A stretch of 44,601 bases of DNA from Christensenellaceae bacterium (GCA_045535775.1 JAZSMG010000253.1:1-44601); one strand, 5' to 3'; shown: positions 1,438 to 40,125, numbered from the stretch's first letter. Made by a program: numbers and translations. Notes: a model not told the origin generated them from the letters alone.

Positions 1438-1453
1438 GTTAATCGCCTTATAG
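1438..1453 (+). repeat. intergenic motif copy GTTAATCGCCTTATAG
   Basis: Read directly from the sequence, between the zinc-ribbon gene and the cyclophilin-like gene. Confidence 0.8.
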
Positions 1454-1500
1454 CGCCACTAAATAAGAAAAAAAATATTAACTTCCTTAGGAGGAATACA

Positions 1501-2394
1501 ATGAAAAAACTTTTCACAAAAATCATTGCTATAGCTTTAGCATTAACAGTTCTTTTCTCTTTTACCGCTTGTGGTGAAGAAGTAGAAGGTGGCAGTAAGA
1601 TTCAAAGAATAAAAATCACACTTCAACTTGATGATGAAAACGTAGAAGTAGAAGCAAAGCTATTCGTTAACTATGCCCCCAAGACCGTTGAACACGTAAT
1701 TGGTCTTATCGAAAAAGGCTACTACAACGGTATGGATATTTCTAACATTGCATCAAGCTATTTCCAATTTGGTGACTACAAGATTGCTAACGGCAAGCTA
1801 GAAGCAGTAGATCAAGGAAGCACCGTTAAGGGTGAATTTGAAAATGCTGGCTTAACCGGTAATAAGCTTACAGTAAGCTCTGGCGCTATTTTATTAAAGC
1901 GCGATAAGGATGATATCAATAGCGGTAAGGCAACCTTAGCAGTAGTTTTATCTGCAAGCGCACCCTTTACTGCAGCTAATTACTGTGTATTTGGTAAAAT
2001 CATTAATGATGACGGCAATAAGGAAGCTGATGCTTCTTCTATGGAATACTTAAGCAGTTTAGAAAGAGTTCAAAAGGTTAAAGAATGCCTTGCAGATGCT
2101 AACGGCAGAAAGGTTTTCTACTGCTTAAAGGATGAGGTTGACAGTGACGTTGAAGGCTCTAAGGATTGGACCGGTTCTTACATCACTTACGCTGAATATG
2201 ATGGTGAAATGGCATATTTTGAAGGCGTGTTAACTGCAGAAGACTTACAAGATAAAGAATTTGCAGAATCAAAGATGATTACAGAAGATCAATTAAACGA
2301 TCTTAGCAACAAGATTACCGTTAGCGAAAACTTTATGCACGTTCCCACCGTTACCGTTAAGATTGTTAAAATCGAATTAATCGATAAGAAATAA
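1501..2394 (+). CDS. lipoprotein with divergent cyclophilin-like (PPIase-fold) domain
   Basis: A GGAGGA RBS precedes the ATG at 1501, and the signal peptide ends in a lipobox (FTAC). The stretch LFVNYAPKTVEHVIGLIEKGYYNG...VFGKI follows the cyclophilin pattern. The FHRV and QGG active-site stretches appear to be replaced. The ORF-track start at 1411 is rejected. Confidence 0.65.
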   Translation: MKKLFTKIIAIALALTVLFSFTACGEEVEGGSKIQRIKITLQLDDENVEVEAKLFVNYAPKTVEHVIGLIEKGYYNGMDISNIASSYFQFGDYKIANGKLEAVDQGSTVKGEFENAGLTGNKLTVSSGAILLKRDKDDINSGKATLAVVLSASAPFTAANYCVFGKIINDDGNKEADASSMEYLSSLERVQKVKECLADANGRKVFYCLKDEVDSDVEGSKDWTGSYITYAEYDGEMAYFEGVLTAEDLQDKEFAESKMITEDQLNDLSNKITVSENFMHVPTVTVKIVKIELIDKK

Positions 2395-2427
2395 TTAAAT
2401 TTTTATCAAAGCTAAAATAAAAAAGTT

Positions 2428-2459
2428 ACCCTTGCCGTTTTTTGGCAAGGGTGTTTTTT
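2428..2459 (+). terminator. rho-independent terminator
   Basis: Stem ACCCTTGCC / GGCAAGGGT followed by a T-run. Confidence 0.8.
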
Positions 2460-2471
2460 AAGGAGTAAGAT

Positions 2472-3350
2472 ATGCAAAAGCTTGTTTCGGTTGTTGGTAC
2501 AACTGCCTCAGGTAAAAGCGATTTAGGCATTGTTTTAGCAAATGAATTTAACGGCGAAATAGTTTCCTGTGATTCCCGCCAGGTTTTTAAGGGCTTAGAT
2601 TTAGGTACCGGTAAGGTTACTAAAGAAGAGCAGGAAATGGCTGTTCATCATTTAATAGATATAATAAACCCAAATGATTATTTTAGCGTTTCAGAATATC
2701 AAAAATTGGCCTATAACGCGATTAACGATATATTATCACGTGGCAAAAGGGCGTTTTTGGTTGGCGGAACGGGGCTTTATTCGCGCGCTGTTTGTGAAGG
2801 GTTCAATATGGGTGAGGAAGAGGTTGATGAGCAGCTTCGCGCCCGTATAAACACACTTTCTAAAGAGCAAATAGAACAAGAGCTTACCGCTTTGGGGCAA
2901 GAAATACCGGAAGGAATATCACCGCGCCATTTGGCAAGAAGGTTAGAAAAAGCCATAAAGGGTGTATCTCATAAGGAAAGTGAGCCTCTTTATGACGTTA
3001 TGCAGTTGGTATTAGTTTACCCAAGAGAAGAGCTTTATAAAAGAATAGAAGAGCGCTTAGATAGGCGCTTGCAAATGGGTATGGTAGAAGAGGTTAGGCG
3101 CTTAAAAGATGAAGGCGCTACCGAGCAGTTTTTAGAAGGGCTTGGGCTTGAATACCGTTACACTAACAGATACTTAAACGGTTTATATTCTTATGAGGAT
3201 TACCGCGCAGAGCTACTAAAGGAAATTCGCCACTTTGCAAAACGCCAAATCACTTGGTTTAAAAAGGAAAAGAACGCCGTGTGGTTAGATATGGCGGGCG
3301 ATTTTACCGCTGAAGCAATTAAGCTTTGCAAGGATTTTTACTCAAAATAA
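2472..3350 (+). CDS. miaA: tRNA dimethylallyltransferase
   Basis: A P-loop GTTASGKS is followed by the typical IVSCDSRQVFKGLDLGTGK motif. An AAGGAG RBS is present and the length of about 290 aa fits. Confidence 0.85.
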   Translation: MQKLVSVVGTTASGKSDLGIVLANEFNGEIVSCDSRQVFKGLDLGTGKVTKEEQEMAVHHLIDIINPNDYFSVSEYQKLAYNAINDILSRGKRAFLVGGTGLYSRAVCEGFNMGEEEVDEQLRARINTLSKEQIEQELTALGQEIPEGISPRHLARRLEKAIKGVSHKESEPLYDVMQLVLVYPREELYKRIEERLDRRLQMGMVEEVRRLKDEGATEQFLEGLGLEYRYTNRYLNGLYSYEDYRAELLKEIRHFAKRQITWFKKEKNAVWLDMAGDFTAEAIKLCKDFYSK

Positions 3351-3362
3351 AAGGGGCAAAAT

Positions 3363-4559
3363 ATGAAAAGGTCTTTTATTTTTATAGCCATAGCATTGGT
3401 TTTAGTTGGGCTTATTTACTTAGGAATTTTTGCTTTGGAAGAAGAAAGCCCAAGCAGTGGCAACGATTCGCATTCGGGTGGTAATCAAAACCAGTCCTCT
3501 TATGAGCAAACCTTTACCCACATTCATTCTTGGCAAGAAGCAACCTGTGTTTTGGCTAAGCACTGCAAAAATTGTGCCGTGGAAGAGGGCGAGCCTTTGG
3601 GGCATGATTACCTTAACGGTGCTTGCAGTAGATGCGGTGAACTTCTATATTTAAGAGAGGGTAATTTTATATACTTTGGTAGTTATCCCCAGTCTGCTGT
3701 AACTGATGAAGGCGTGTTGGCAAGGCTAAACGCCATAGTTGGCGAGTTACCAACGGCACAAAACTTCGGCGAATGGATTGGCTACGGTTACTATATTCTA
3801 AGCCAAAAGCAGAGTTTTGCTTGGTATAATGACGTAGAGCTAGAAGGTGAAAAATACAGAGCGGTTTACTATGCAAAATACCGCCCCTTCTCAACCGATA
3901 GGTCAAGTATAGATACGCAATGCTTCCAAGATGAAAACGGATATGCGGTAAACAGTATTTATTGGTTTAAGTTTGAGCCCATAAAATGGCGAGTTTTAAG
4001 GGAATTGGAGGGTGAACTGTTCTTGCTTTCTAATTTAATATTAGATTCACGCGAGTTTTATACGCACGATAGCCAAAGACGAATTGATGAAAACTCAAGT
4101 TATATATATCCCAATAACTACGCGCATAGTACTTTAAGAAGTTGGCTTAACGGTGAGTTTTATAATCTTGCATTTGGTCAAGATCACAGCGCGCTTATTT
4201 CAACCGCCTTTGTGCTAAACGAGCAAGGCAGTACAGGCACGGAAAGCAACCCCTACGTTTGTGAAAATACCAACGATAAGGTGTTTTTATTAAGCTATTC
4301 AGATTCAATGAACACCAAGCACGGCTTTTATAGCGATAAGGACCGCCAGTTAGGTATAACCGATTACGCACTTTCTCAAGGCGGTGCAGCAAGAGAAGTA
4401 GAAGGTGAAATATTTGGTTATTGGTGGCTTCGTTCCCCATTTTATAACACAGAAAAAATAACCCTATCAATCAACGCAAACGGTGAAATAGAAAACTCCG
4501 GTAGCGTTAACAGCACGGGGTGCGGTGTTGCGCCGGCAATTAAAATAAAGCTTAGTTAA
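3363..4559 (+). CDS. membrane-anchored surface protein, Cys-rich module plus DUF6273-like domain
   Basis: It has an N-terminal TM helix and a Cys module (HSWQEATC..C..C...LGHDY..C..CG). The LRSWLN and YWWLRSP motifs are ones I associate with DUF6273-type domains. Confidence 0.6.
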   Translation: MKRSFIFIAIALVLVGLIYLGIFALEEESPSSGNDSHSGGNQNQSSYEQTFTHIHSWQEATCVLAKHCKNCAVEEGEPLGHDYLNGACSRCGELLYLREGNFIYFGSYPQSAVTDEGVLARLNAIVGELPTAQNFGEWIGYGYYILSQKQSFAWYNDVELEGEKYRAVYYAKYRPFSTDRSSIDTQCFQDENGYAVNSIYWFKFEPIKWRVLRELEGELFLLSNLILDSREFYTHDSQRRIDENSSYIYPNNYAHSTLRSWLNGEFYNLAFGQDHSALISTAFVLNEQGSTGTESNPYVCENTNDKVFLLSYSDSMNTKHGFYSDKDRQLGITDYALSQGGAAREVEGEIFGYWWLRSPFYNTEKITLSINANGEIENSGSVNSTGCGVAPAIKIKLS

Positions 4560-4686
4560 TGACTAAAAAGGTTTAAGTTATTGCAAAACGCGGGCTTAAT
4601 TTTAACGGTTTACAAGTAAACAAAAAAACAATTTATCTTGTGGGGTTTTTTAAATAAATTCCAATCAAATAAAACAAAAAAGTGCC

Positions 4687-4702
4687 GTATAAGGCGATTA
4701 AC
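4687..4702 (-). repeat. intergenic motif copy (minus strand reads GTTAATCGCCTTATAC)
   Basis: The plus strand reads GTATAAGGCGATTAAC. It ends 8 nt upstream of the GGAGG RBS of the LRR gene. Confidence 0.8.
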
Positions 4703-4721
4703 AACACTTTGGAGGTGTGTT

Positions 4722-8877: not shown

Positions 8878-8922
8878 AAAAAAAAGCTATAGTACGTTAA
8901 TAGTGCTATAGCTTTACTTTTT
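8878..8922. terminator. bidirectional terminator containing motif copy GTTAATAGTGCTATAG (8896-8911)
   Basis: An A8 run is followed by stem AAAGCTATAGTAC / GTGCTATAGCTTT and then ACTTTTT. It lies between the convergent LRR and patatin genes. Confidence 0.75.
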
Positions 8923-8980
8923 ATGGTTAAAATGTAAAAAACCACCGCTTTTAGTGATTGTTTAGATTGTTTTGATATTA

Positions 8981-11158: not shown

Positions 11159-11394
11159 TTTTTCTCCTTTTTTATTAGGGATTTGCCTCTTTTTTCTTGC
11201 AATCCCCAAAATTATTGTTTCTAGATTATACCATAAAAATACTTTAATGTAAACAAAAAAACACTCAATTATAGCCTTTTTCCATTTTTAACCCACTTTT
11301 AACGTTTTTTTTGCAATTTTGTGTTAAAATTAGGCAAATTAAATACTTTTTACCTTTTTATTTGTATAAATATTTGCTTTCCAACATAAAATAT

Positions 11395-11670
11395 ATGGGA
11401 TTTTTATTTATGGAAGATAATAAATTGCATTCGCTTACCCTAGAAGGGCAAAAGAAAATTTGCATCACCTGCGTTTCAGAGGTAGAAAACGTCACCGCGG
11501 AATGTATAAAGTTGGTGCTTGTTGGCGGTAAACGGCTTGTTTTATGCGGTACAAACCTAAAAATGGGTGCTTTTTCCAAGCAAAACGCTACTTTTTGTGC
11601 AGAAGGGCTTATAACAGAAATAAAATATGCCGGGCAAAAGACCTCTTTTGTTAAAAAATTACTCAAATGA
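11395..11670 (+). CDS. yabP: sporulation protein YabP
   Basis: The sequence HSLTLEGQKKICITCVSEVENV...LVLCGTNLKM...GLITEIKY follows the YabP/YqfC pattern, and a yabQ homologue lies downstream. The start is uncertain (11395 or 11410). Confidence 0.75.
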   Translation: MGFLFMEDNKLHSLTLEGQKKICITCVSEVENVTAECIKLVLVGGKRLVLCGTNLKMGAFSKQNATFCAEGLITEIKYAGQKTSFVKKLLK

Positions 11671-12273: not shown

Positions 12274-12284
12274 CGCAACAAGTG

Positions 12285-12325
12285 CGCGTATAAAGCGATT
12301 ATCGCCTTATACGCGTATTTAATTT
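12285..12325 (+). terminator. terminator-like hairpin containing motif copy GATTATCGCCTTATAC (12297-12312)
   Basis: Stem CGCGTATAA / TTATACGCG (9 bp) is followed by TATTTAATTT. Confidence 0.55.
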
Positions 12326-14366: not shown

Positions 14367-14371
14367 AAAGG

Positions 14372-14410
14372 AAAAGTGGGGTTAACAGCGCTATAGCCCC
14401 ACTTTTATAC
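14372..14410 (+). terminator. terminator-like hairpin with motif copy GTTAACAGCGCTATAG (14381-14396) in the loop
   Basis: Stem AAAAGTGGGG / CCCCACTTTT. Confidence 0.55.
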
Positions 14411-15280: not shown

Positions 15281-15281
15281 T

Positions 15282-15584: not shown

Positions 15585-15620
15585 TTAAAGGGAAAAACAG
15601 ATAAAACTATAAAATAACAA

Positions 15621-15653
15621 AACCGCCGATAATCGACTTATACGGCGGTTTTT
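15621..15653. terminator. bidirectional terminator with motif copy GATAATCGACTTATAC (15628-15643) in the loop
   Basis: Stem AACCGCCG / CGGCGGTT is flanked by A- and T-runs. Confidence 0.75.
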
Positions 15654-15674
15654 ACTTGTATTTAATTATTAGTT

Positions 15675-18411: not shown

Positions 18412-18452
18412 AAAGTCCTTTTTTATTGTTGGTTTTTAATTTAGTATATGTA

Positions 18453-18468
18453 GTTAATCGACTTATAC
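18453..18468 (+). repeat. intergenic motif copy GTTAATCGACTTATAC followed by GCCCACTTTTT
   Basis: Read directly. It lies between two minus-strand genes and has no complementary partner nearby. Confidence 0.8.
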
Positions 18469-18479
18469 GCCCACTTTTT

Positions 18480-18520
18480 ATATAAAAATACGAAAGTAAC
18501 GGTTAAAATTACCTTCGTAT
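18480..18520 (-). terminator. rho-independent terminator of the aldo/keto reductase gene
   Basis: The 12 bp arms ATACGAAAGTAA / TTACCTTCGTAT have one mismatch. A T-run follows on the minus strand. Confidence 0.7.
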
Positions 18521-18530: not shown

Positions 18531-19661
18531 TTATTTATTCTCGAAATGTTTAGCAACCATTTCAAGCATATCTCTTATTTTTATATGTTGTGGGCAAATA
18601 TCTTCACACGCACCGCATTTAATGCAATCGCTTGCCTTGCCGTTTTTCTTTGTGCTCATTGAATAGTGCCAATTGCGAATAACGCCGGTGAAAACCTTTT
18701 CATCGTTAAAGTATGCAAATAAATCGGGAATGCGAATGCTTTGTGGGCAACCCTCAACGCAGTAACTGCAACCGGTGCAGGGGATTACCTTAAGTGTTTC
18801 AAGCAGTGCCTTAACTTCTTCAATGGTCTTAAATTCTTCCTCGCTAAGAGGCTTAAAGTCGGTCATAAAGGAAAGGTTATCTTGCATTTGGGCAAGGTTA
18901 CTCATACCCGATAAAATCATAACGTTGTTTTCAAAACTACCGCAGTATCTAATAGCATAGCTTGCAGGGCTAGCGTTTCCAAGTAAAGCGAATTTTTCAA
19001 CGGCTTGGGTTGGTAGGTTGGCAAGTTGACCGCCCTTTACGGGCTCCATAATCAAGCAGGGCTTGCCGTGCTTTAAGCAAACGTCATAGCAGGCGCGTGA
19101 TTGAACGTCTGCATCCTCATAGTCAAGGTAGTTAAACTGTATTTGAACTATTTCTATTTGAGGATATTCAGTAAGAATTAAATCAAGATAGTCTGCGCTA
19201 TCGTGGAAGGAAAGTCCAACGTGCTTAACCTTGCCTTCCTTCTTAAGCTCGAAAGCCTGCTCGTACGCCTTACACTGCTTAAAATGGGGGTAATTGCCAC
19301 GGCCTTGGGCATGCATGAGATAAATATCAAAATAATCCACCCCGCAAGCCTCAAGCTGAATTTCAAAGATTTTTCTAACTTCATCTTCGCTTTTAAAGTA
19401 AGGGCCGGAAAGCTTGTTGGTTAAAATAAAGCTTTCCCTTGGGTAGCGCTTAACAACGCATTCACGAATGGCAATTTCGCTTTTGCCTTCAAGATAGCCG
19501 TGGGCGGTGTCGAAGTAATTAAAACCTGCTTCAACGAAAGCGTCTGCCATTTTAATAAACTCTTCATAATCAACTTCGCCGTTTTTCATGGGAAGTCGCA
19601 TACATCCAAAACCGAATTTTTTGGGTAGTTTTTGTAATAATTCACTACTTTTATCTAACAT
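18531..19661 (-). CDS. aldo/keto reductase with C-terminal 4Fe-4S ferredoxin domain
   Basis: An AKR-like N-terminal region (GFGCMRLP..., FDTAHGY) is followed by CTGCSYCVEGCP and CIKCGACEDICP. An AAGGAG RBS is present. Confidence 0.8.
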   Translation of the reverse strand: MLDKSSELLQKLPKKFGFGCMRLPMKNGEVDYEEFIKMADAFVEAGFNYFDTAHGYLEGKSEIAIRECVVKRYPRESFILTNKLSGPYFKSEDEVRKIFEIQLEACGVDYFDIYLMHAQGRGNYPHFKQCKAYEQAFELKKEGKVKHVGLSFHDSADYLDLILTEYPQIEIVQIQFNYLDYEDADVQSRACYDVCLKHGKPCLIMEPVKGGQLANLPTQAVEKFALLGNASPASYAIRYCGSFENNVMILSGMSNLAQMQDNLSFMTDFKPLSEEEFKTIEEVKALLETLKVIPCTGCSYCVEGCPQSIRIPDLFAYFNDEKVFTGVIRNWHYSMSTKKNGKASDCIKCGACEDICPQHIKIRDMLEMVAKHFENK

Positions 19662-20059: not shown

Positions 20060-22024
<1,965 letters not shown>

Positions 22025-22038
22025 GGAGATTTAGGCAT

Positions 22039-24818: not shown

Positions 24819-24876
24819 TATATATTTAAGTTTTTTATTTTTATAATTTGGTTGCAAGTATTTTACTCAAACCTGC

Positions 24877-24892
24877 GTTAATCGCTCTATAG
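24877..24892 (+). repeat. intergenic motif copy GTTAATCGCTCTATAG followed by CCCCACTTTTT
   Basis: Read directly. The tail CTATAGCCCCACTTTT is identical to the copy at 14391-14406, but no complementary arm lies upstream. Confidence 0.8.
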
Positions 24893-25067
24893 CCCCACTT
24901 TTTGTTTTAAAATTAAATAAAAACAAATAAGATAAGCGCTAAAAAAGCATTTTTATCCTTAAATAACGGCGGTTTTTAAATGGTTAATAATACTTAAATT
25001 GCTTTGACAAATATTTTAAAGAGTATTATAATTAAAATTAAGAAAAATTATTTGATAGGAGATAAAA

Positions 25068-26738
25068 ATGAGTTTTATTAAAAAGTTAATAACCTTACTT
25101 TGTATTGTTCTTTGCGGTTCGCTAGTTATTGCCTGCAATACTACCTCTAACAATTCAAGTGAGTCCTCTTCCGGGGTGGAAGAAGAAAGTAGTTTAAGCA
25201 GCGAAAGCAGCTTCATCGATTCTAACCGTTCAAGTGAAGACAATAGTTCCGTTGATTCTGATAGCAGTTCAACCGAGGAAGAAATTGTTCCCGTTGGCTT
25301 AGAGGTAATCGATCAAACTACTTCCTTTACCGTATTAGAAAAATTCCTTTTTGACGGAACTGTATATTTAGAATATTCAGACGGAAGCAAGGTAGAAATT
25401 GATGATTATTGGGTTGAATACGGCAATTATAATAAAGAAAAGGTTGGCAGTTATTCAATTAAAGTTTGCACCAATGAATTTGAAAGTGAATACCAAGTTT
25501 CCGTTAATCGCCGTAACACCTTTAAGGTTCTTATGATAGGTAACAGTTTTTCAGACGATACCTCTGAATACGCTCCCATGATAGCTAAGTCGTTAGGTAT
25601 TACCGACGTTGAGGTTGGTAATTTATTTATCGGCGGTTGTTCTATCAATACTCATTACAATAATTTATTAACCGGCACGGCTGCTTACGACTTCCGTTAC
25701 TACGGAGCAAGCGGGGCTTGGGATTATACCGTAGGTGGAGTAAAACAATCCTTACAGTATGCAATTAAATACGCAGATTGGGATATTATAACCTTCCAGC
25801 AGGCAAGCCCGGATAGTGGCGTTGCTTCTACTTATACTAATTTGTTAAATTTGATAAACGGTGTAAAAAATCTTGCTACTAATAAGGACGTAATATTCTT
25901 ATTTAACATGACTTGGGCTTACTAAGCTAACAGCACTCACAGCGCGTTCCCGACCTATAGCAATAGCCAAGAAATTATGTATAATTCAATAGTTGGCACT
26001 GTTCAGCACACCGTTTTAAGGCATACGGTTATTAGTTCAGTTATTCCCAACGGCACGGCAATCCAAAATGCAAGAACTTCTTTCGTTGGCGATAATTTAA
26101 CAAGGGACGGTTATCATTTATCTTACGATTTAGGTAGATATATTGCAGGGCTTACTCTTGTTGCAAAGGTAACCGGCATTAGTCCTGAAGAAGTTACTTA
26201 CGCGCCAAGCGGAATGCTTTCTGCTTACGTAAGCGTTGCTAAAGAAAGCGCGTCTAACGCAATTAACAATCCTTACCAAGTAACTACGTCTAAATATACT
26301 AATATGGAAAGTGTTATTCCGGAAGGCTATAGGGAGCTTAGCTACGAAGAGTACGGTTGGACTAATACTTGGGGATTTTGGGATTCCGGTAACGGTTTAA
26401 CAACCCCTATAACGAATACCTCTCTAGCAGAAAAATTCGTTGCTACTAAAAGATTTACAAAGGCAGAGTTACCCATTGGGTCTATAATCGTAATCGAAAG
26501 CGGTTGGCAATACCGCCCCGATGCATGGATGGCAAACAACGGTAAGCCCGCATCAAGACCTAATAACGTTAGCGTTACTTATACGGAAGTTACTGAAGAA
26601 TGGTGGGGGAGCTATGCAGAGCGCGCGTTCAACGTAAGCTTAACCTCAGGCGCTACCTTAAACGACGGTTCAACCCCTGCAAAATACGAGCTTGCAAAGC
26701 AGGCGTTTAAGATTTTTGTTCCCAACACGTCAAAATAG
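25068..26738 (+). pseudogene. DUF4886-type (SGNH-like) lipoprotein gene interrupted by one in-frame TAA (25923-25925)
   Basis: ORFs 25068-25925 and 25977-26738 share one frame. The stretch NMTWAY*ANSTHSAFPTYSNSQEIMYNSIV reads through a segment I recall as conserved (WAY..NSTH..F..Y...Q..MY). A lipobox (VIAC) and the MIGNSFSDD motif are present. Confidence 0.65.
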
Positions 26739-26740
26739 CC

Positions 26741-26756
26741 GTTAATCGTGCTATAG
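26741..26756 (+). repeat. intergenic motif copy GTTAATCGTGCTATAG followed by AGCTACTTTTT
   Basis: Read directly. It starts 3 nt after the stop codon. Confidence 0.8.
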
Positions 26757-26896
26757 AGCTACTTTTTATGTAAAATAATAGCGGTTTAATTATAAAAATT
26801 AGTAATTACAACAAAAAAAGAGCAACCATGCAAAGGGTGAATTTTGCGTGTTTGCTCTTTTTAATTATAAATTTAAAATTAAATTTTTATAATATA

Positions 26897-27328
26897 TTAA
26901 CCAAGTAAGCAGTCTTCTAAAAAGTCTAAATCATCGTAAGTAAAGCGCCCGTCGGAGCACATTGCCGCAATGCAAAGACTAATGAATGAAACCTTAACGC
27001 TACCGGGTAATCTTTTACAAAGATTGCTTACGTCCCGCTTGATAGATATAGAACGCTTTTGGTCTATCATTTCTTCGTAATAATCCCTGTTTATTTCGCT
27101 AATCTTAAATATATATTTTAAAAACTCCCATTCGCCGTTAGATAAATATCCATCTAACGCAAAGCAAACCACAAGGCATTCAATAATACCCTTGTTGGTT
27201 TCTAAGTGGTTGTGTGTTATAGGGTTAAGGTAATCAAAAATCTCACGGTATCTATCATAGCCGTATTGCAAAAGCTGGGTAAAATCAAGTGATTTACAGT
27301 GATTTAAAATTTCTTGTGCGCTTGGCAT
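26897..27328 (-). CDS. hypothetical protein, possibly TerB-like two-repeat fold
   Basis: DG-x5-E-x3-L-like segments occur twice (LDGYLSNGEWEFLKYI and SDGRFTYDDLDFLEDC). The family assignment is weak. Confidence 0.5.
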   Translation of the reverse strand: MPSAQEILNHCKSLDFTQLLQYGYDRYREIFDYLNPITHNHLETNKGIIECLVVCFALDGYLSNGEWEFLKYIFKISEINRDYYEEMIDQKRSISIKRDVSNLCKRLPGSVKVSFISLCIAAMCSDGRFTYDDLDFLEDCLLG

Positions 27329-27369
27329 ATCTATTTTCCTTCCTGTTTTGTTTTTATTACAAAAATATC

Positions 27370-27385
27370 GTTAATCGCCTTATAG
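27370..27385 (+). repeat. intergenic motif copy GTTAATCGCCTTATAG followed by AGGGGTTTTTT
   Basis: Read directly, between two minus-strand genes. Confidence 0.8.
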
Positions 27386-27436
27386 AGGGGTTTTTTAATA
27401 AGAAAGCGATGCTTTTTTGCACCGCTTTTTGTTGTT

Positions 27437-29511: not shown

Positions 29512-30918
29512 TTAAAGTATAAAATAGTTTATTATTAAGGAAACTATGCCGTAATAGGTTAATGCGGAAACCAAGTCGCTTGCAGTAGTTATTAGCGGAC
29601 CGGATGCCGCCGCAGGGTCTACCCCCATCTTTTTAAATAAAATGGGAACGGCGCAACCGCAAAAGCCGGAAACTGTCATAGAGCAAACCAAGGCAATCGC
29701 AATACACGCAGAAAGGGTAAAGGACCTATCTAAGGGCATATCTTTAAAGAAGTAAACGTATGCGCCAAGTAGCGCAAAGCTTATTATAGCCAAGAAAATT
29801 CCGTTAATAAAGGCAAGGCTTATTTCGTTTGCAAACATTCGCCTTATCTTTTTGCGCTGGGTCGCTTCGGGTAAATTCCTAATAGTAACGCCAAGCGCTT
29901 GAGTGCCTGTATTACCGCTCATACCAAGAATCATTGGTTGGAAGAACGCAAGCAAGGGTAGCATTGCAACAACGTGGTCAAATATGCCTATCAATGCAGA
30001 TACGCCAAGGCTTAAGCAAAGCAAGATTAAAAGCCAGGGAAGCCTTGCTTTAAGGCTTAAAAGTAAGCTGTTTTTTTCTTCAGTATAAGAAGAAATACCT
30101 GCTAGTTTAGAATAGTCTTCCTTTAACTCGTTTTCCGTTGCTTCAACCAAGATAGCGTCCGTAAGTGCGCCTATAAGGCGATTATCGTTATCTACAACGG
30201 GCAAAGAATCTTCAGAATAGTCTTGCAAACTCTCTAAAACGTCTGCAATTTTTAAATTTGCGTTAAAGCAGGGGTAAGATGTTGCTATAATATCTTCAAG
30301 CGGGGTATTAGCTCTTGCAATAAATAAATCTTTAAGCTGAATAGCGCCGTAGTAGCAATCCTTTTCGTCCGTTACGTAAATGGTGGTTATGTTATTACAG
30401 CTTTCTGCTTGAGCAATTAAGCTGTTCATGGCTTCCTTAACGCTAAAGGTGTTCTTTATGCTTACGAAGTCGTTAGTAATAATACTACCAAGGCAGTCCT
30501 CTTCGTAGGTGGCAATAAGTTCAACGTCTTTTGCAACCTCTTCATCAAGTAACTCTATAACCTCTTTTTGCTTTTCTTCATCTAACTCTTCTAACACGTC
30601 AACCGCGTCGGCAGAGTCCATTTCCTCAATAATGTCTGCAACCTTTTGGTTAGATAGTTCATCTACAAACTCTGCGGGGTTATCTAAGTATGCAAATATA
30701 TCAGAAAGCTCTTCGTTAGAAAGAACGGTGTAAAGTCTAAGTCTTTGATCCTTGGGTATTTCGGGTAAGATATCCGCAATATCCTTAGCGTGGTAGTCAG
30801 AAAGCTTTTCGCGCAATTTTTCTGCGTGGTAGCCTGCGTTTATAATTTGCATTAACTGGCTTTCTCTTATCTTTTGCGGATCGTTTTCATTTGGCAAAAG
30901 AAAATCCTTTTCTTCCAT
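29512..30918 (-). CDS. mgtE: magnesium transporter MgtE (paralogue 1)
   Basis: It has the MgtE N-domain, a CBS pair and a TM domain with MSGNTGTQ. An AAGGAGG RBS supports the ATG at 30918. Confidence 0.9.
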   Translation of the reverse strand: MEEKDFLLPNENDPQKIRESQLMQIINAGYHAEKLREKLSDYHAKDIADILPEIPKDQRLRLYTVLSNEELSDIFAYLDNPAEFVDELSNQKVADIIEEMDSADAVDVLEELDEEKQKEVIELLDEEVAKDVELIATYEEDCLGSIITNDFVSIKNTFSVKEAMNSLIAQAESCNNITTIYVTDEKDCYYGAIQLKDLFIARANTPLEDIIATSYPCFNANLKIADVLESLQDYSEDSLPVVDNDNRLIGALTDAILVEATENELKEDYSKLAGISSYTEEKNSLLLSLKARLPWLLILLCLSLGVSALIGIFDHVVAMLPLLAFFQPMILGMSGNTGTQALGVTIRNLPEATQRKKIRRMFANEISLAFINGIFLAIISFALLGAYVYFFKDMPLDRSFTLSACIAIALVCSMTVSGFCGCAVPILFKKMGVDPAAASGPLITTASDLVSALTYYGIVSLIINYFIL

Positions 30919-30984
30919 TGCGAATACCTCCTTTTGATGATATGCACGCTTTCGCGTGATGATATGCAACCTTGCGGTTGGTGG
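30919..30984 (-). promoter_or_regulatory. conserved mgtE leader (copy 1)
   Basis: The minus strand reads CCACCAACCGCAAGGTTGCATATCATCA-CGCGAAAGCGTG-CATATCATCAAAAGGAGG. Confidence 0.6.
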
Positions 30985-30995
30985 TAAAAGTAGGG

Positions 30996-31011
30996 CTATA
31001 GGTCGATTATC
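30996..31011 (-). repeat. intergenic motif copy (minus strand reads GATAATCGACCTATAG followed by CCCTACTTTT)
   Basis: The plus strand reads CTATAGGTCGATTATC. It lies between the two mgtE genes. Confidence 0.8.
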
Positions 31012-31026
31012 TATAGTTTTTTACTG

Positions 31027-32430
31027 TTAAATAAGTAGCATTAGAGCAAAACCGTAATATACCGTTATTGCTATAAGGTCATTTAAGGTAGTAATTAAAG
31101 GGCCGGATGCAACCGCAGGGTCAACCTTTAATTTGTTTAAGGTAATGGGAATAAGAGCGCCCGTTAAAGAAGCAACCGTGGTAGAAATTAACATTGCTAG
31201 GCCCACGGCAAATCCCGTTTGTAAATCTGTTGTAAACGAGCCTGTTGCGCTGGTTAAGTATGCGTAAAGGGTAACTGCGGTAAATGAAATAAGCCCTGTG
31301 ATTAAGCCTATAAATAAGCCTACCTTTACTTCGTTAAATAAAAACTCGCGCTGTTTTTTGCCGTCGTCTGAATAATCGGAAAGCAGGTTGACCGCAGAAG
31401 CCAGCGTTTGGGTGCCTGTGTTACCACTCATACCTGAAACAAGCTGTTGGAAGCTTACTAAGAAAGGCAAGCCAATAACAACCGCTTCAAAAATGCCAAT
31501 ATACATACCTATAAAAAGGTCCAAAACAAGCAACACAACAAGCCAAGGCAATCTTTTTAACGCGCCGGAAAAAATCTGTTTTCTTTCAAGCGCTTCCTCT
31601 AAATCCTCTTCTGTAAGACCAACTAGTTTTGCATAGTCTTCCGTTAACTCTTCATCTAACGCTTCTAAGGTGTCTGCACTGGTAAGTGCGCCTATAAGGC
31701 GATTATCGTTATCTAAAATGGGTAAAGTGGGCTCTGAATACTCTCTTACGTCCCACACACTTTCCTCTACCGTTGCACTTGCGTATAGGAAAGGAAAGGA
31801 TTTTATTATAATCTCTTCTAACGGTGTATCTGCACGTGCAATAACTAAATCTCTTAATCTAATTGCACCCAAGTAGATGCCGTTTTCATCGGTAACGAAT
31901 ATTGTGGAAATGTTATCCATTTCGCCTGCTTGGTGAATAACACTGCGCGTTGCTTTTTTAACGGTGAGGGTGTTTTGTATACTAACGAAGTCGTTTGTCA
32001 TACGGCTACCGATTAGCTCGTCCGGGTAAGCGGAAATAAGCTCAACCTCTTTTGCAACCTCTTCGTCCAAAAGCTCTATAACTTCTTTTTGCTTTTCTTC
32101 ATCTAAGTCCTCTAAGATGTCAACCGCATCGTCAGAGTCCATTTCCTCAATAATATCCGCCACGCGCTCGTTAGAAAGTTCTTCTATAAAGTCCGCAGGG
32201 TTTTCTAGGTGGGTGAATATATCAGAAAGGCGCTCGTCGCTTAACGCCTTGTAAAGAATAAGCCTTTGCTTTTTATCTAAAAGGGGAATAGCGCGCGCAA
32301 TATCGTAATCGTGGTAATCGTAAAGAAGCTCTGCAATTTCGCTTTGCTTTGCGCTTTGAATAATTGCTATAATTTCCGCAATAAAATCGGGTGATTTAAT
32401 TTCTAATTCTTCATTAAAATCCTTATTCAC
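31027..32430 (-). CDS. mgtE: magnesium transporter MgtE (paralogue 2, GTG start)
   Basis: Same architecture as paralogue 1. The segment VADIIEEMDS.DAVD.LE.LDEEKQKEVIELLDEEVAK is near-identical between them. A GGAGGA RBS is present. Confidence 0.9.
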   Translation of the reverse strand: MNKDFNEELEIKSPDFIAEIIAIIQSAKQSEIAELLYDYHDYDIARAIPLLDKKQRLILYKALSDERLSDIFTHLENPADFIEELSNERVADIIEEMDSDDAVDILEDLDEEKQKEVIELLDEEVAKEVELISAYPDELIGSRMTNDFVSIQNTLTVKKATRSVIHQAGEMDNISTIFVTDENGIYLGAIRLRDLVIARADTPLEEIIIKSFPFLYASATVEESVWDVREYSEPTLPILDNDNRLIGALTSADTLEALDEELTEDYAKLVGLTEEDLEEALERKQIFSGALKRLPWLVVLLVLDLFIGMYIGIFEAVVIGLPFLVSFQQLVSGMSGNTGTQTLASAVNLLSDYSDDGKKQREFLFNEVKVGLFIGLITGLISFTAVTLYAYLTSATGSFTTDLQTGFAVGLAMLISTTVASLTGALIPITLNKLKVDPAVASGPLITTLNDLIAITVYYGFALMLLI

Positions 32431-34078: not shown

Positions 34079-34810
34079 ATGTCAGAAGAAAAAAGAAAAA
34101 AAGGCATAAAGCCCGGTCAAAGAAGAACGTGGTTTAAGTGCGTAAAAGCCATTTTAAAATTATTCATAAAAAAACCACGCTTCGTATTCCTTGGGGAGGA
34201 ATTTGTTGACTGTTGCTTGGTTTTAAGCAATCACGTTGGGGCAAGCGCGCCTTTAACGCTGGAATGCCATTTTCCAAAGCCCTTTAGATTTTGGGGTACT
34301 TACGAAATGAACTCTTCCTTAAAGGAAGTTTACAAGTATTTATCAGAAATTTATTTTCACCAAAAAAAGCATTGGAAGCTATTCTGGTCAAAGCTGTTTT
34401 GTATAATTGCCGCGCCCGTGGCTTATTTATTTTATCGCGGGCTAACCCTTATTTCTACCTATCGCGATCACAGGTTTAGAAATACTTTAAAAGAAAGCAT
34501 CAGAACAATAGAAGCAGGCGCAAGCTTGGTCATCTTCCCGGAAGATTCTTCAAAGGGTTACTTCAGTACCATAACCGGCTTCTTTTCCGGTTTTGTTACC
34601 TTGGCGCACGTATGCTATAAAAAAGGCTATGATCTTCCCATTTACTTAAGCTATTTACGTAAAAAAGATAAGGTGTATATCGTAGATAAGCCAATCCGTT
34701 ATAGTGAGCTTATGGAAAGCGGGTTAGATAAATACCAAATTGCAGAAGAGCTTCGCCAAAAATGCAACGCGTTAGGCGAAATGGAAATTCCTGCAGAAGT
34801 TGCCAAATAG
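34079..34810 (+). CDS. acyltransferase-like protein (LPLAT/PlsC-like, HX4D not intact)
   Basis: LSNHVGASAP occupies the position of NHxxxxD, with Ala where Asp is expected. VIFPEDSSKG resembles the FPEGT block. A GGAGA RBS is present. Confidence 0.5.
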   Translation: MSEEKRKKGIKPGQRRTWFKCVKAILKLFIKKPRFVFLGEEFVDCCLVLSNHVGASAPLTLECHFPKPFRFWGTYEMNSSLKEVYKYLSEIYFHQKKHWKLFWSKLFCIIAAPVAYLFYRGLTLISTYRDHRFRNTLKESIRTIEAGASLVIFPEDSSKGYFSTITGFFSGFVTLAHVCYKKGYDLPIYLSYLRKKDKVYIVDKPIRYSELMESGLDKYQIAEELRQKCNALGEMEIPAEVAK

Positions 34811-34820
34811 GTCGATTAAC
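34805..34820 (-). repeat. motif copy (minus strand reads GTTAATCGACCTATTT) spanning a stop codon
   Basis: The plus strand reads AAATAGGTCGATTAAC and covers the TAG at 34808-34810. Confidence 0.6.
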
Positions 34821-34861
34821 GGCTAGTTTGTTGTAAAAATAAACGCAAATTAAATATCAAT

Positions 34862-34900: not shown

Positions 34901-34905
34901 TTGCT

Positions 34906-34984
34906 CCGTTACAACAAGTGGTTGATAAAAAGTATTTTTAATTATAAAAAAACAACCGTTGTTCGCGCCATCGCCTTTTACTTT
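34906..34984 (+). repeat. long-form hairpin repeat, copy B
   Basis: Reads TCCGTTACAACAAGTGGTTGATAAA...AACAACCGTTGTTCGCGCCATCGCCTTTTAC. Confidence 0.7.
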
Positions 34985-35125
34985 AAAAGGTGGAAGTAGT
35001 TAAATAAAATTAGGCAAAAGGGTAAAAAGTGTTAATTATTTTTAAAAATTTACTTAATATTATTGTGTATATTTTAAGTTTATGTTAAAATAGCGGTATA
35101 AACGCAAATCAAGAAGGGGAAAAAT

Positions 35126-36385: not shown

Positions 36386-36389
36386 AAAC

Positions 36390-36420
36390 AAAACTCTGCC
36401 TTGATTGGCAGAGTTTTTTA
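36390..36420 (+). terminator. rho-independent terminator
   Basis: Stem AAAACTCTGCC / GGCAGAGTTTT followed by TTAT. Confidence 0.85.
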
Positions 36421-36477
36421 TATACGTTATGGGTTTTTTGCTACCTTTTCGTTAAAAATTACCGTTAATTCACCCTT

Positions 36478-37503: not shown

Positions 37504-37625
37504 TTTTTCATCTCCAAAATAAAGTTAAGCATATTATATCACTAGTAAAAGTTAAAGTCAATATTAAAGCCAAAAAAACTCGTAAATATATTTAATTTTA
37601 CTTTTAAAAGGATTACCAAAAATAA

Positions 37626-37660
37626 AAAAACCACGCTATAGCGCGGTTAATGGGGTGTTT
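37626..37660 (-). repeat. 35 nt repeat, copy 1 (contains the motif and a short terminator hairpin)
   Basis: The plus strand reads AAAAACCACGCTATAGCGCGGTTAATGGGGTGTTT. On the minus strand, CCGCGC-TATA-GCGTGG is followed by T7, immediately 3' of the XRE gene. Confidence 0.75.
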
Positions 37661-37662
37661 GC

Positions 37663-37872
37663 TTACTGTTCGCTTATTCCTGCAAGATAGTCTAAGGAAA
37701 CTTCAAAAAATTTAGCAAGGGCAATTAGGCTAGATAAAGTGGGTTCTCTTAAGCCGTTTTCCCATAAGCTAATAATTCCTTTACTAACGCCAATTTCTTT
37801 AGCTAACTGAATTTGACCTATTTTCTTTTCTATTCTTAATTCTTTTAAGCGTTCTGCAAAATTATTATTCAT
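37663..37872 (-). CDS. XRE-family helix-turn-helix transcriptional regulator
   Basis: ERLKELRIEKKIGQIQLAKEIGVSKGIISLWENG is a classic HTH_3 pattern. The start is uncertain (ATG 37872 or TTG 37884) and no clear RBS is present. Confidence 0.8.
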   Translation of the reverse strand: MNNNFAERLKELRIEKKIGQIQLAKEIGVSKGIISLWENGLREPTLSSLIALAKFFEVSLDYLAGISEQ

Positions 37873-37945
37873 ATTATAACCCAAAAAATATTATTCTCAA
37901 TTACCTAAACGATTAAGCAAAATTGATAATAAAATTATCTCACAA

Positions 37946-37989
37946 AAGTAAGAATTTTACTTGACTTCTTACTATTGTAAGAGTATAAT
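37946..37989 (+). promoter_or_regulatory. sigma-A promoter with two overlapping inverted repeats (candidate XRE operators)
   Basis: TTGACT (37961-37966), a 17 nt spacer, then TATAAT (37984-37989). TCTTAC-tatt-GTAAGA lies within the spacer, and AAGTAA-gaatt-TTACTT overlaps the -35. Confidence 0.6.
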
Positions 37990-38043
37990 AAAAGTGTTCT
38001 TCAAATAGAAGGATAATATTTTTACAAAAAAGGAGAAGAATAA

Positions 38044-38442
38044 ATGAGAAAAGGTGTAACAATTTTAATCAGTTTACTATGCATAATCATAGTATTCTTT
38101 GCAAGCTCTTGCGGTATTCCCAGCAGTTTGGGCGAAATAACTTTAAACCTTACTGAAAACGGATACGAAGAAATTGAGATTTATGAAGACGAAGAAGTTG
38201 CGGATTTGTTAGATTGCGAGGGCAAGCTTTATATACTAGAAGGATATAAGGATGGCATTTCCGAAAAATACGTTGCAATATTTTCTTTTGAAAAACGTAA
38301 TGACTTTAAAAAGGCTTGTGAAGAAATAGATGGTTTAATTGAAGAATTTTTCGGCGAGGATGACGATAAGGTTGCTTACGAAACAAAAGGTAAAATGATT
38401 ATTTTAGTAAGTAAAAAAAGTGTATTGGATGATTTAAAATAA
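38044..38442 (+). CDS. small acidic lipoprotein, uncharacterised (paralogue 1)
   Basis: An AGGAGAAG RBS and a lipobox (ASSC) are present. It resembles the next ORF: GYE.IE.Y, KYV.IF.FE...DF, and KGK..I.V....VLDD. Confidence 0.7.
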   Translation: MRKGVTILISLLCIIIVFFASSCGIPSSLGEITLNLTENGYEEIEIYEDEEVADLLDCEGKLYILEGYKDGISEKYVAIFSFEKRNDFKKACEEIDGLIEEFFGEDDDKVAYETKGKMIILVSKKSVLDDLK

Positions 38443-38457
38443 TAGGAGGTACATATA

Positions 38458-38862
38458 ATGAAAGTAAAGAAGGTTGCTATATTTGCCGTTATAGTTGTTG
38501 CTATTACTGTACTTTTAATTGTGATTTGCAGTGGCTCAAAGGTAGGAAAGTATATTGATAACTTAGTTGAAGTAGGTTATGAAATTGAAGTTTATATGCC
38601 TGATGAAGATGAAAGAGAAGAAGTTAATATGGAAGGTAAAATTGTTGCAATAAACGCTTTTAAAGCCGGAATGACAACAAATTCAGATAAATACGTAAGC
38701 ATTTTCGTATTTGAAAACAAAAGTGATTTTAATACCTTCTATGAAGATTATATTGAAGAATACGAAGAATATATTGAAGAAGGGGAAATGGTTATTAAAA
38801 AGAAGGGTAAAGCTTTAATAATCGTTAATGACGAAGACGTATTAGATGATGTACTTGGCTAA
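38458..38862 (+). CDS. small acidic membrane-anchored protein, uncharacterised (paralogue 2)
   Basis: A TAGGAGG RBS and an N-terminal TM helix are present. It is a paralogue of 38044-38442. Confidence 0.7.
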   Translation: MKVKKVAIFAVIVVAITVLLIVICSGSKVGKYIDNLVEVGYEIEVYMPDEDEREEVNMEGKIVAINAFKAGMTTNSDKYVSIFVFENKSDFNTFYEDYIEEYEEYIEEGEMVIKKKGKALIIVNDEDVLDDVLG

Positions 38863-38929
38863 TTATTTTTCACAGTTATTTAAAAATAAAAGGCAAAAAA
38901 TCTTTTAAAAAAACAAGCAAAACAAAAAA

Positions 38930-38959
38930 ATCACGCTCTTTTTCGGGCGTGATTTTTTA
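38930..38959 (+). terminator. rho-independent terminator
   Basis: Stem ATCACGC / GCGTGAT followed by TTTTTAT. Confidence 0.7.
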
Positions 38960-38984
38960 TGTGCTAAAATAAATTTATTTTTAC

Positions 38985-39019
38985 AAAAACCATGCTATAG
39001 CGCGGTTAATTGGGTGTTT
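38985..39019 (-). repeat. 35 nt repeat, copy 2
   Basis: The plus strand reads AAAAACCATGCTATAGCGCGGTTAATTGGGTGTTT, 33/35 identical to 37626-37660. It lies immediately 3' of the dehydrogenase gene. Confidence 0.75.
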
Positions 39020-40053
39020 TAGAAGCATTTGCCCGTTTTGCAGTCGCCTATTTCGCCACCCTTAAAGCATACCTCGTTGGGGCATTTGCCTTCTGCAATT
39101 ATACTGCAAATATTATTCACGGTGGTTTCTGCAATATTTTCTAAAGCTTCTTCGGTTAAAAATGCTTGGTGAGAGGTTACTATTACGTTGGGCATAGAAA
39201 TAAGTCTTGCTAAAACGTCGTCATCCATAATATGGCCGGAAAGGTCTTCAAAGAAAAAGTCTGATTCTTCTTCGTAAACGTCTAAGCAAGCACCGCCTAC
39301 CTTACGTTCCTTAATGGCGGTAAGCAACGCTTCGGAATCAACTAGCGCCCCGCGTGAGGTGTTAATAATAACAACCCCCTTTTTGCATTTTTCAAGGGCA
39401 GTTTTATCTATTACGTGGTGAGTTTCTTCCGTTAGGGGGCAATGAAGTGAAATAATATCGCTATTTTCAAAAAGCTCGTTAAGTTCTACGTATTTAACCT
39501 TACCGCTAGCTATTAGCCCTTGGTTTGGGAATTTATCAAATGCAAGCACGTTCATTCCAAACCCTTTGCAAATATCAATAAATACTTGGCCTATTCTACC
39601 CGTACCTATAACGCCAACCGTTTTACCGTGAAGGTCAAACCCCGTCATGTTGGCAAGGCTAAAGTTAAAATCGCGGGTGCGAATATACGCCTTGTGTATT
39701 CTTCTTACTATAGTTAAAAGCATTGCAACGGCGTGCTCTGCTACGGCGTAAGGGGAGTATGCAGGCACTCTTACAACGTGAATTTTAGAAAGCGCGTGTT
39801 TTACGTCTACGTTATTAAAGCCCGCGCACCTTAGCGCAATAACCTTAATACCCATTTCGTAAAGCGCATCTATTACCTTGCTATTTGCAACGTCGTTAAC
39901 GAATATGCAAACCCCGTCGAACCCCTTTGCAAGGTAAACGGTATCTTCTGTTAATTTAGTTTCAAAATATTTAAAGCAAACGCCGGCTTTTTTGCCGTAT
40001 TTTTCAAAGGACGGCTTATCGTAAGGCTTTGCATCAAAGAATGCTATTTTCAT
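39019..40053 (-). CDS. ldhA: D-isomer-specific 2-hydroxyacid dehydrogenase (D-lactate dehydrogenase-like) with a 4-Cys C-terminal tail
   Basis: Contains GVIGTGRIGQ (NAD binding), NTSRGALVD and TSHQAF motifs. The tail reads CPNEVCFKGGEIGDCKTGKCF. Confidence 0.8.
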   Translation of the reverse strand: MKIAFFDAKPYDKPSFEKYGKKAGVCFKYFETKLTEDTVYLAKGFDGVCIFVNDVANSKVIDALYEMGIKVIALRCAGFNNVDVKHALSKIHVVRVPAYSPYAVAEHAVAMLLTIVRRIHKAYIRTRDFNFSLANMTGFDLHGKTVGVIGTGRIGQVFIDICKGFGMNVLAFDKFPNQGLIASGKVKYVELNELFENSDIISLHCPLTEETHHVIDKTALEKCKKGVVIINTSRGALVDSEALLTAIKERKVGGACLDVYEEESDFFFEDLSGHIMDDDVLARLISMPNVIVTSHQAFLTEEALENIAETTVNNICSIIAEGKCPNEVCFKGGEIGDCKTGKCF

Positions 40054-40109
40054 AAAAACTCCTTTTTATGTGAGTATGTGAATACGTGTTAAAATTATGC
40101 TTTTATGCC

Positions 40110-40125
40110 GTTAATCGCGCTATAG
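40110..40125 (+). repeat. motif copy GTTAATCGCGCTATAG followed by GCTATCTTTTT
   Basis: Read directly. It ends 1 nt before the ygiQ stop codon (minus strand, 40127-40129), and its ACTTTTT-like tail runs into the ygiQ coding end. Confidence 0.8.

Follow-up and report, generated by a model that had tools for sequence, protein, structure and literature searches.

What is the word of roughly 36 bp that recurs about once every 2 kb along a contig of a Christensenellaceae bacterium (JAZSMG010000253.1; 44,601 nt, or 44.6 kb, analysed in full and termed the window hereafter), and what could hold so long a word in place at so many sites? The original prediction, made from this sequence alone, listed 16 copies and proposed a repeat like the repetitive extragenic palindromic (REP) sequences or miniature inverted-repeat transposable elements (MITEs), a shared terminator or 3'-end module, or a site for an abundant DNA- or RNA-binding protein. 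With related genomes at hand, we rate the word as a genome-wide signature of the class that holds uptake signal sequences (USS), DNA uptake sequences (DUS), REP elements and the highly iterated palindrome (HIP1), new in its lineage and its architecture; no described motif of this kind was found in the literature on Christensenellaceae and Christensenellales.

The word stands far above chance. With up to three mismatches allowed, GTTAATCGNNCTATAG matches the window 25 times as against 4.8 ± 2.6 times in dinucleotide shuffles, none of 100 shuffles reaching 25. A 38-nt position weight matrix (PWM), derived from copies in other genomes and then run on the window, returned 20 hits at 19-40 bits and one weak hit (13 bits), where first-order Markov controls gave 0.0-0.2 hits; the resulting density (0.45 per kb) is indeed comparable to that of REP or uptake-signal sequences. 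All 16 copies of the original prediction lie where it placed them, its minus-strand copies being given by their high coordinate, but four strong ones had been missed, all on the minus strand (cores starting at 2711, 30171, 31692 and 12288). On the points by which it had proposed to judge the motif, the word is far above shuffles, is not confined to the window and is not equally common in coding sequence.

Its anatomy, drawn from 224 and then from 371-392 instances, is that of a full unit of ~36 bp, aAAAgtgcC-GTTAATCG-nS-YTATAG-sCsg-ACTTTT, in which 13 positions are nearly invariant. The A-run at -8/-7 (83-88% A) lay outside every search pattern and is therefore an independent conserved feature; the ACTTTT tail, already noticed in the original prediction, is likewise real and conserved. 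Four conserved blocks are centred at about -7.5, +3, +12.5 and +23.5, i.e., spaced by about one helical turn, and A/T tracts phased every 11-12 bp extend to about ±60 bp on both sides, with further A/T-rich peaks at about -42, -30, -17, +32, +44, +56 and +67 in coding and non-coding copies alike. Two-fold (mirror) symmetry is weak (similarity of ~0.4 around +3, +8 and +12.5). In the window, 6 copies match the consensus perfectly, 6 differ from it at one position and 7 at two. The halves do not lead separate lives: GTTAATCG occurs 209 times in 863 kb, joined to the right half in 171 cases, and the 38 solo occurrences compare with 33 expected by chance, most "solo" right halves being degenerate full copies. 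Copies split 9 plus to 11 minus by strand; across the window, nearly all 2-kb bins have a positive GC skew, and the cumulative skew climbs throughout. Together, these data show one indivisible unit of double-stranded DNA, read as DNA in either orientation.

The strict 26-nt pattern, run against a species-representative genome collection, matched at least 112 stretches. Among the matches listed, all fall within at least 42 gut metagenome-assembled genomes (MAGs) labelled Christensenellaceae, Christensenella or uncultured Clostridia(les), with GC contents of 34-50%, a few of the matched assemblies bearing implausible names (Acidiphilium, Parasutterella, Subdoligranulum). The hosts of the matched MAGs were human, goat, sheep, roe deer and reindeer. 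The consensus is alike across assemblies, with small dialects (e.g., GTTAATCG versus GATAAC[CG]G). Relatives' loci were taken as 8-kb pieces of genomes, and the nearest relative of the window among the matches listed is MAG SIG378 (locus L050; ~92% identity). A metagenome contig from the species of SIG378 (L115), fetched by protein homology and not by motif, gave 4 PWM hits in 7.2 kb, and 36 other contigs of other gut bacteria (315 kb) from the same homology fetch gave none. Viral contigs yielded no strict match and 2 weak single ones, cultured phages no match, and plasmids only partial matches at chance level. The word is common to a whole clade of gut Clostridia and is specific to that clade.

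Twelve motif-bearing contigs with a GC range of 37-52% (L007, L008, L011, L023, L041, L043, L046, L065, L067, L090, L094 and L097) come from the assemblies named Parasutterella, Acidiphilium or Subdoligranulum; as these names are implausible for the motif and the GC content, mislabelled or mis-binned MAGs are suggested.

The 20 copies of the window, each with its PWM score, lie as follows.

1428..1465, plus strand (core 1438-1453), 27.2 bits: 32 nt past the stop of the open reading frame (ORF) at 324-1406, between two plus-strand genes.
2699..2736, minus strand (core 2711-2726), 37.8 bits: within miaA, antisense, coding for QKLAYNAIND.
4675..4712, minus strand (core 4687-4702), 30.7 bits: past the upstream terminator, ~20 nt before the ribosome-binding site (RBS) of a leucine-rich-repeat adhesin gene.
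8886..8923, plus strand (core 8896-8911), 19.1 bits: convergent region, within a hairpin to which a partial inverted copy upstream contributes (terminator-like hairpin at 8883-8915).
12276..12324, overlapping inverted pair (cores 12288-12303, minus, and 12297-12312, plus), 28.9 and 21.8 bits: a long palindrome with a minimum free energy of -21 kcal/mol.
14371..14408, plus strand (core 14381-14396), 37.3 bits: loop of the hairpin AAAAGTGGGG...CCCCACTTTT, 15 nt past a stop codon.
15618..15655, plus strand (core 15628-15643), 37.2 bits: convergent region, loop of a CCGCC/GGCGG hairpin.
18443..18480, plus strand (core 18453-18468), 38.4 bits: 42 nt before the next start codon and antisense to both genes, directly past the canonical terminator (18521-18487) of gene 18531-19661 (minus); kept in SIG378, where most changes hit degenerate positions and one (position 15, C to A) leaves the consensus.
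21997..22034, minus strand (core 22009-22024), 22.3 bits, weaker: overlaps the gyrB stop (the gene end L D V stop being CTTGACGTATAG), 15 nt before the gyrA start; kept in SIG378.
24867..24904, plus strand (core 24877-24892), 37.8 bits: ~60 nt past the gyrA terminator and ~110 nt upstream of a perfect TTGACA-17-TATAAT promoter (25004-25032).
26731..26768, plus strand (core 26741-26756), 38.9 bits: 3 nt past a stop codon in a convergent region, with a separate terminator next; kept in SIG378 and L115.
27360..27397, plus strand (core 27370-27385), 39.9 bits: past the nagB terminator, 42 nt before the start of gene 26897-27328 (minus).
30159..30196, minus strand (core 30171-30186), 30.1 bits: within mgtE paralogue 2, sense, coding for DNRLIG.
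30984..31021, minus strand (core 30996-31011), 37.6 bits: between the two mgtE genes.
31680..31717, minus strand (core 31692-31707), 28.8 bits: within mgtE paralogue 1, sense, coding for DNRLIG.
34793..34830, minus strand (core 34805-34820), 25.9 bits: overlaps the stop codon of gene 34079-34810 (plus).
37624..37661, minus strand (core 37636-37651, ATTAACCG variant), 30.6 bits: 11 nt past the stop of a 73-aa helix-turn-helix (HTH) gene (37663-37884, minus), with a CCGCGC-TATA-GCGTGG hairpin (37648-37629) and a T run.
38983..39020, minus strand (core 38995-39010, ATTAACCG variant), 25.3 bits: 9 nt past the D-lactate dehydrogenase stop, convergent region.
40100..40137, plus strand (core 40110-40125), 31.5 bits: abuts the stop of a YgiQ radical-SAM gene (antisense), 57 nt before the next start codon.

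Placement was assessed from crude ORF calls on the window and 112 loci; since these loci were picked for containing a strict match, absolute densities are inflated, and the contrast among region types should be little affected. Copies occupy 52 of 83 convergent intergenic regions (63%), 116 of 411 tandem regions (28%) and 8 of 80 divergent regions (10%), with a density in tandem and convergent intergenic DNA roughly 12-19 times that in coding DNA. Within tandem regions, copies run with the genes in 74 cases and against them in 55, and both orientations have an upstream stop codon nearby (medians of 27 and 36 nt), some copies providing the stop codon itself. About 16 of the window's roughly 27 gene or unit ends are marked by a copy, and 3' zones are preferred over 5' zones about seven-fold; the non-coding copies are, in either orientation, marks of gene 3' ends. 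Copies are also found in operon spacers (gyrB-gyrA) and, in both orientations, 10-57 nt upstream of start codons, so that RNA polymerase must read through them. With respect to terminators, copies can stand past them (at gyrA, 24877; also 18453, 27370 and 4687) or before them (26741), while those at 8896, 12288/12297, 14381, 15628 and 37636 lie in a hairpin loop or stem; the original prediction had described such copies in terminator hairpins and others with no complementary partner, and both kinds are there. The only window copy that seems to lie in a divergent region (37636) is explained by the HTH gene that it follows, an Xre/Cro-type gene with its own promoter (TTGAGA-16-TATAAT, 37900-37873, minus).

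How the copies came to be where they are is best seen inside genes, where the original prediction had, mistakenly, placed no clear copy. Three of the 20 window copies (in miaA and in two mgtE genes), and 29-34% of 372-392 copies in related genomes, lie in coding sequence. Stop-to-stop ORFs of at least 200 aa contain 114 of 392 PWM hits, of which 106 occupy the three stop-free frames: sense frame 0, giving xVNRLI[GED]xL; antisense frame 2, giving [EQK]KxAY[KNR]x[IV]N; and antisense frame 1, giving KSxxISRLT. The outer AAAgt… and …ACTTTT parts are preserved in these coding copies, and thus belong to the word and not to terminators. The miaA copy uses the same codons in three genera (the window, L042 and L065; 64-68% protein identity); in L065 the peptide AYNAIND has become AYRSIND with all fixed motif bases retained (CTATAGGTCGATTAAC), and the L042 copy differs by one base. 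In mgtE, 16 of 16 core nucleotides are identical in four divergent genes in which neighbouring synonymous sites vary. A gap test covering these two gene families left both alignments ungapped across the motif-encoded residues, for MiaA against PDB 2qgn and 3d3q and for MgtE against PDB 2yvx and 2oux; the same test was used by Redfield et al. to show that USS are not insertions (PMC1626085). The two mgtE genes are tandem paralogues (29512-32430) with the motif at the same CBS-domain codons (DNRLIG), such that this copy appears to predate the duplication or was homogenised between the paralogues.

Outside genes, every copy is retained over the 16.5 kb shared with SIG378 (92% identity), substitutions falling mostly on degenerate positions, and the intergenic mgtE copy (30996) keeps its place and orientation in SIG378, in L115 and in the ~70%-identical L096. 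A patatin gene has a 3' copy in the same orientation in the window and in L042, at 70 nt versus ~2 nt from the stop codon, and given these different distances the two may be independent; turnover is also seen in the CNNM-patatin spacer, which has a copy in L042 and none in the window. These sequence comparisons show that copies come about by base substitution and stay in place, also inside genes, where they fix codon choice.

The gene at 26897-27328 (143 aa, no Pfam match) is, together with copy 27370, absent from SIG378 and L115; the difference, at 26780-27436, amounts to an indel of a whole gene with convergent neighbours on its two sides. The flanks in SIG378 do not support its deletion through recombination of copy 26741 with copy 27370.

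Several explanations compete for this word, and those in which it acts as RNA or as a mobile insert fare worst. A shared 3'-end or terminator module, a site for an RNA-binding protein or a promoter, possibly of phage type, would suit the T-run after the motif, the terminator hairpins formed by some copies, their closeness past stop codons and the likeness of TTAATCGACCTATAG to T7 TAATACGACTCACTATAG and of ATTAACCGCGCTATAG to T3 ATTAACCCTCACTAAAG, yet we regard any such signal as extremely improbable. No complementary covariation was found at the tested position pairs over -20..+30, including the specific stems 9-15, 8-16, 7-17, 6-18 and flank to tail; as the original prediction held, it is the primary sequence that is conserved and not a fold. 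The tail falls in a reasonable hairpin in 62 of 225 copies (~27%), leaving 73% with none, hairpin energies are only marginally better than with flanks permuted between copies (p = 0.04), and Rfam returned no match at gathering score and one unrelated weak match at E ≤1. RNA structure is ruled out on these grounds. An intrinsic terminator is likewise rejected: besides the copies that form no hairpin and those that are anti-oriented to transcription, ordinary intrinsic terminators and sigma-70 promoters (e.g., TTGACA-17-TATAAT at 25004-25032) exist separately, beside the copies. In neither orientation do hexamers and spacing suit a sigma-70 promoter (the candidate -10 hexamer has no invariant final T), real promoters lie elsewhere, and divergent, promoter-bearing regions are the least occupied; location also rules out the T7/T3-type resemblance. 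Look-alikes of sigma-28, sigma-54, cre, Fur, CRP, RTP/Ter and dif sites were dropped for misfits in key positions, spacing or copy number, and no tRNA-linked arrays were found. Of the module that the original prediction suggested, then, the location stands, and the module itself does not, given the separate signals, both orientations, and copies in operons and genes; of its binding site, the DNA-binding version is the class that the evidence supports, and the RNA-binding version is unsupported, as structure is absent and the motif's orientation is immaterial.

A miniature mobile element transposing into 3' regions, either of the kind formed by REP doublets (REPINs) with REP-associated tyrosine transposases (RAYTs) or a MITE of two abutted terminal repeats with Correia-type ends, also strikes us as very improbable. 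It would account for a short word in high copy number with a 3' and convergent bias and both orientations, and for local arrays of direct copies 68-240 nt apart. REP sequences and the bacterial interspersed mosaic elements (BIMEs) built from them, like the REPIN-RAYT systems of Proteobacteria, measure ~35 bp, number in the hundreds, lie in either orientation and are sometimes clustered; REP/BIME are concentrated past genes and between convergent genes, are rare in divergent promoter regions and have a candidate role in gyrase or IHF binding. The present word differs in having no imperfect palindrome or stem-loop, in being ~30% intragenic and thus not strictly extragenic, and in being ancient and positionally stable; a crude HUH…Y motif screen (HUH/Y1) of 860 kb of partial genomes found no RAYT. 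The likeness to the Correia repeat of Neisseria (Correia repeat enclosed element, CREE, or Neisseria miniature insertion sequence, NEMIS) is one of sequence: its terminal inverted repeat is 5'-TATAGTGGATTAACAAAAA…, and the reverse complement of our motif core, CTATAG-NNC-GATTAAC, shares 12 fixed bases in the same order with the Correia end TATAG-TG-GATTAAC (PMC5039591). The spacer is, however, one base longer here, and copies are solitary, not inverted pairs around a 50-150 bp core, with neither TA duplication nor other insertion signature; the resemblance is a lead and not evidence of membership, and may be coincidental. A parent transposon with the halves as its separate ends is rejected, as the halves do not occur alone beyond chance, and the MITE/Correia class falls with it, since no inverted pairs at MITE spacing were found, coding copies have no insertion gap or target duplication, and no presence/absence polymorphism occurs over the 16.5 kb shared with SIG378. 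The mobile-element explanation, and with it the REP/MITE-like repeat first proposed for these copies, is already largely refuted for coding copies. These results rule out an RNA element, a promoter and a terminator, and transposition at least for the coding copies.

Two explanations that treat the word as DNA do better. By-production through a mutation or repair bias, or another genome-wide process, has a precedent in HIP1 (GCGATCGC) of cyanobacteria, a word over-represented throughout its lineage, inside genes as well as outside them, that keeps its positions and is not known to have a cellular reader of its own; in-situ origin, occurrence inside and outside genes, and lineage-wide conservation match it. 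Still, HIP1 spans 8 bp, reads as a perfect palindrome and does not favour 3' ends. None of the repair biases known specifies an asymmetric word as long as 36 bp whose flanks are phased, and a strong 3'-zone preference is unexpected from mutational bias; we give this origin little credence. More weight, albeit still in the realm of the doubtful, goes to architectural or topological sites, at which an abundant clade-specific bending protein (IHF/HU-like, Lrp-like or other), gyrase or topoisomerase IV would wrap ~120 bp and punctuate transcription-unit ends, relieving positive supercoils or insulating units as REP/BIME do in enterobacteria. The A/T phasing to about ±60 bp around coding copies too, the four blocks one helical turn apart with their weak two-fold symmetry, the occupancy of 63% of convergent as against 10% of divergent regions, and the adjoining rather than replacing of canonical terminators at marked gene ends all suit such sites, and the run of A-run, 8 nt and AATCG offers a candidate likeness to the IHF site layout, i.e., an A-tract, ~8 nt, then WATCAR. 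Phasing and convergent-region bias are explained better this way than by an uptake signal; less well explained are the near-invariant core, the positions that RNA polymerase reads through and the ~100 copies inside genes. About 30% of copies sit inside genes at arbitrary positions, many others lie 10-57 nt upstream of starts or within operons (gyrB-gyrA) and are read through by RNA polymerase, gyrase has a low sequence specificity as against 13 nearly invariant positions, and selection on any single one of ~1000 sites would need the strength to hold synonymous codons fixed over long times. A bolder form of the same idea, in which the word would anchor a new chromatin or insulator system whose clade-specific, sequence-specific protein wraps ~120 bp at ~1000 fixed positions, mostly transcription-unit ends, and so partitions the chromosome into transcriptional or topological units, seems unlikely to us.

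The explanation that we tentatively place ahead of these, as a possible one, is that the word is a USS/DUS-like tag of self DNA, recognised by a protein, accumulating in situ and maintained by biased uptake and recombination. It was chosen because USS/DUS is the only well-understood phenomenon with the whole set of observed properties. Like the word, USS and DUS occur at ~0.5-1 copy per kb without orientation bias; are proper to a family-level clade, with dialects, and absent outside it; originate by point substitution and not by insertion; are stable at orthologous positions; include intragenic copies in tolerated frames; and are strongly enriched at operon ends and in or near terminators. 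In Neisseria, 55% of terminators carry a DUS (PMC1852404), and the USS core is flanked, much as here, by A/T-rich segments about one helical turn (~12 bp) apart (PMC1626085). Under such a model, a protein conserved in the clade would recognise the word in double-stranded DNA and probably bend it, a bend that would account for the phased A/T tracts; when conspecific DNA is taken up and recombined, fragments with the word would have an advantage; and this bias, as a molecular drive, would introduce the word wherever it is tolerated and preserve the copies already present. Sites that directly follow a stop codon or lie in or next to a terminator would be preferred, as their A-run, GC-rich and T-run stretches already resemble the outer parts of the word, and promoter-bearing divergent regions would tolerate it poorly. 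The receptor, the competence and the drive are components that we infer as parts of this model.

A number of points weigh against an uptake tag. Among the matches listed, no motif-bearing genome has a cultured-strain name. To our knowledge, natural transformation in Gram-positive bacteria is sequence-independent, and we know of no sequence-specific uptake in anaerobic, sporulation-gene-bearing gut Clostridia such as these hosts. At ~36 bp, with two invariant blocks and a two-fold symmetry that is weak (0.4), the word greatly exceeds USS/DUS (core of 9-12 bp) in length and information content, and its consensus, with the window's 6 perfect, 6 one-mismatch and 7 two-mismatch copies, is relaxed where that of USS is very sharp. 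A/T phasing on both sides over ~120 bp is more like DNA wrapped on a cytoplasmic protein, and, unlike in USS/DUS, terminator stems are rarely formed by inverted copy pairs. The seven-fold preference for 3' over 5' zones exceeds simple tolerance and could reflect a gene-end function, terminator "seeds" (A-run, GC-rich, T-run) accounting for it only partly. Lastly, the depletion in viral contigs means little unless the collections contain phages of this clade.

A 2025 preprint gives the Neisseriaceae DUS and the Pasteurellaceae USS as making up the uptake-enhancing sequences (10.1101/2025.10.24.684340). Were the word an uptake or self tag, no earlier one would be known beyond two families of Proteobacteria, and a first DNA-uptake signal outside Proteobacteria would be almost as novel as the chromatin or insulator system considered above. 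The tag would belong to an abundant gut lineage that is associated with health and has for the most part not been cultured; it would imply that this lineage exchanges genes sequence-selectively, and, placed on donor DNA, would provide a handle for genetic manipulation. Were it an architectural site, it would represent a sequence-defined punctuation of transcription units. Under either explanation, the word can serve as a lineage barcode (given 0 hits in 315 kb of other gut bacteria) that flags mis-binned or mis-named MAG contigs, and can separate core DNA from recently acquired DNA in these genomes. Its hold on intragenic codon choice matters for evolutionary-rate analyses, and its interest lies in the clean comparative evidence for a constraint at the DNA level.

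Around individual copies, additional features were observed. Downstream of copy 30996, the mgtE spacer (30905-30995, minus) contains two short hairpins, with GCATATCATCA repeated past each of them and an RBS next; SIG378 has an extra insert of ~100 nt in this spacer. It gave no match in an Rfam search, and may be a regulatory leader. Directly downstream of copy 38995, a sub-threshold Rfam match to the enterobacterial small RNA STnc370 (38921-38994, minus; 34 bits versus a gathering score of 54, E = 0.5) is probably due to chance. The adjacent ORFs at 25068-25925 and 25977-26738 correspond to N-terminal (profile positions 1-130) and C-terminal (149-242) parts of one DUF4886 domain, and may represent a split or frameshifted gene or a two-part family. 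A gene for a YabP-family sporulation protein (11311-11670), followed by a 181-aa ORF, indicates that the lineage carries sporulation genes.

Arrays of copies occur in related genomes. At L035 1-520 (JAFTIY010000083.1), a tandem array of ~120-nt units carries, in each unit on the opposite strand, an RBS, a ~20-aa ORF (MRQMPKRRDRNPFIYYTHFT and variants) and the motif directly past the stop, and may constitute a multi-copy small-peptide or precursor array. Long intergenic regions at L005 380-860 and L056 2880-3500 contain 3-4 direct copies of the motif with a ~110-nt unit in between, homologous from one MAG to the other (…AAGTTAAAAAC.AAGTTG…AAGCGAAGT…TCTAGTTAATTTA…), which may be a small RNA gene or a duplicated spacer.

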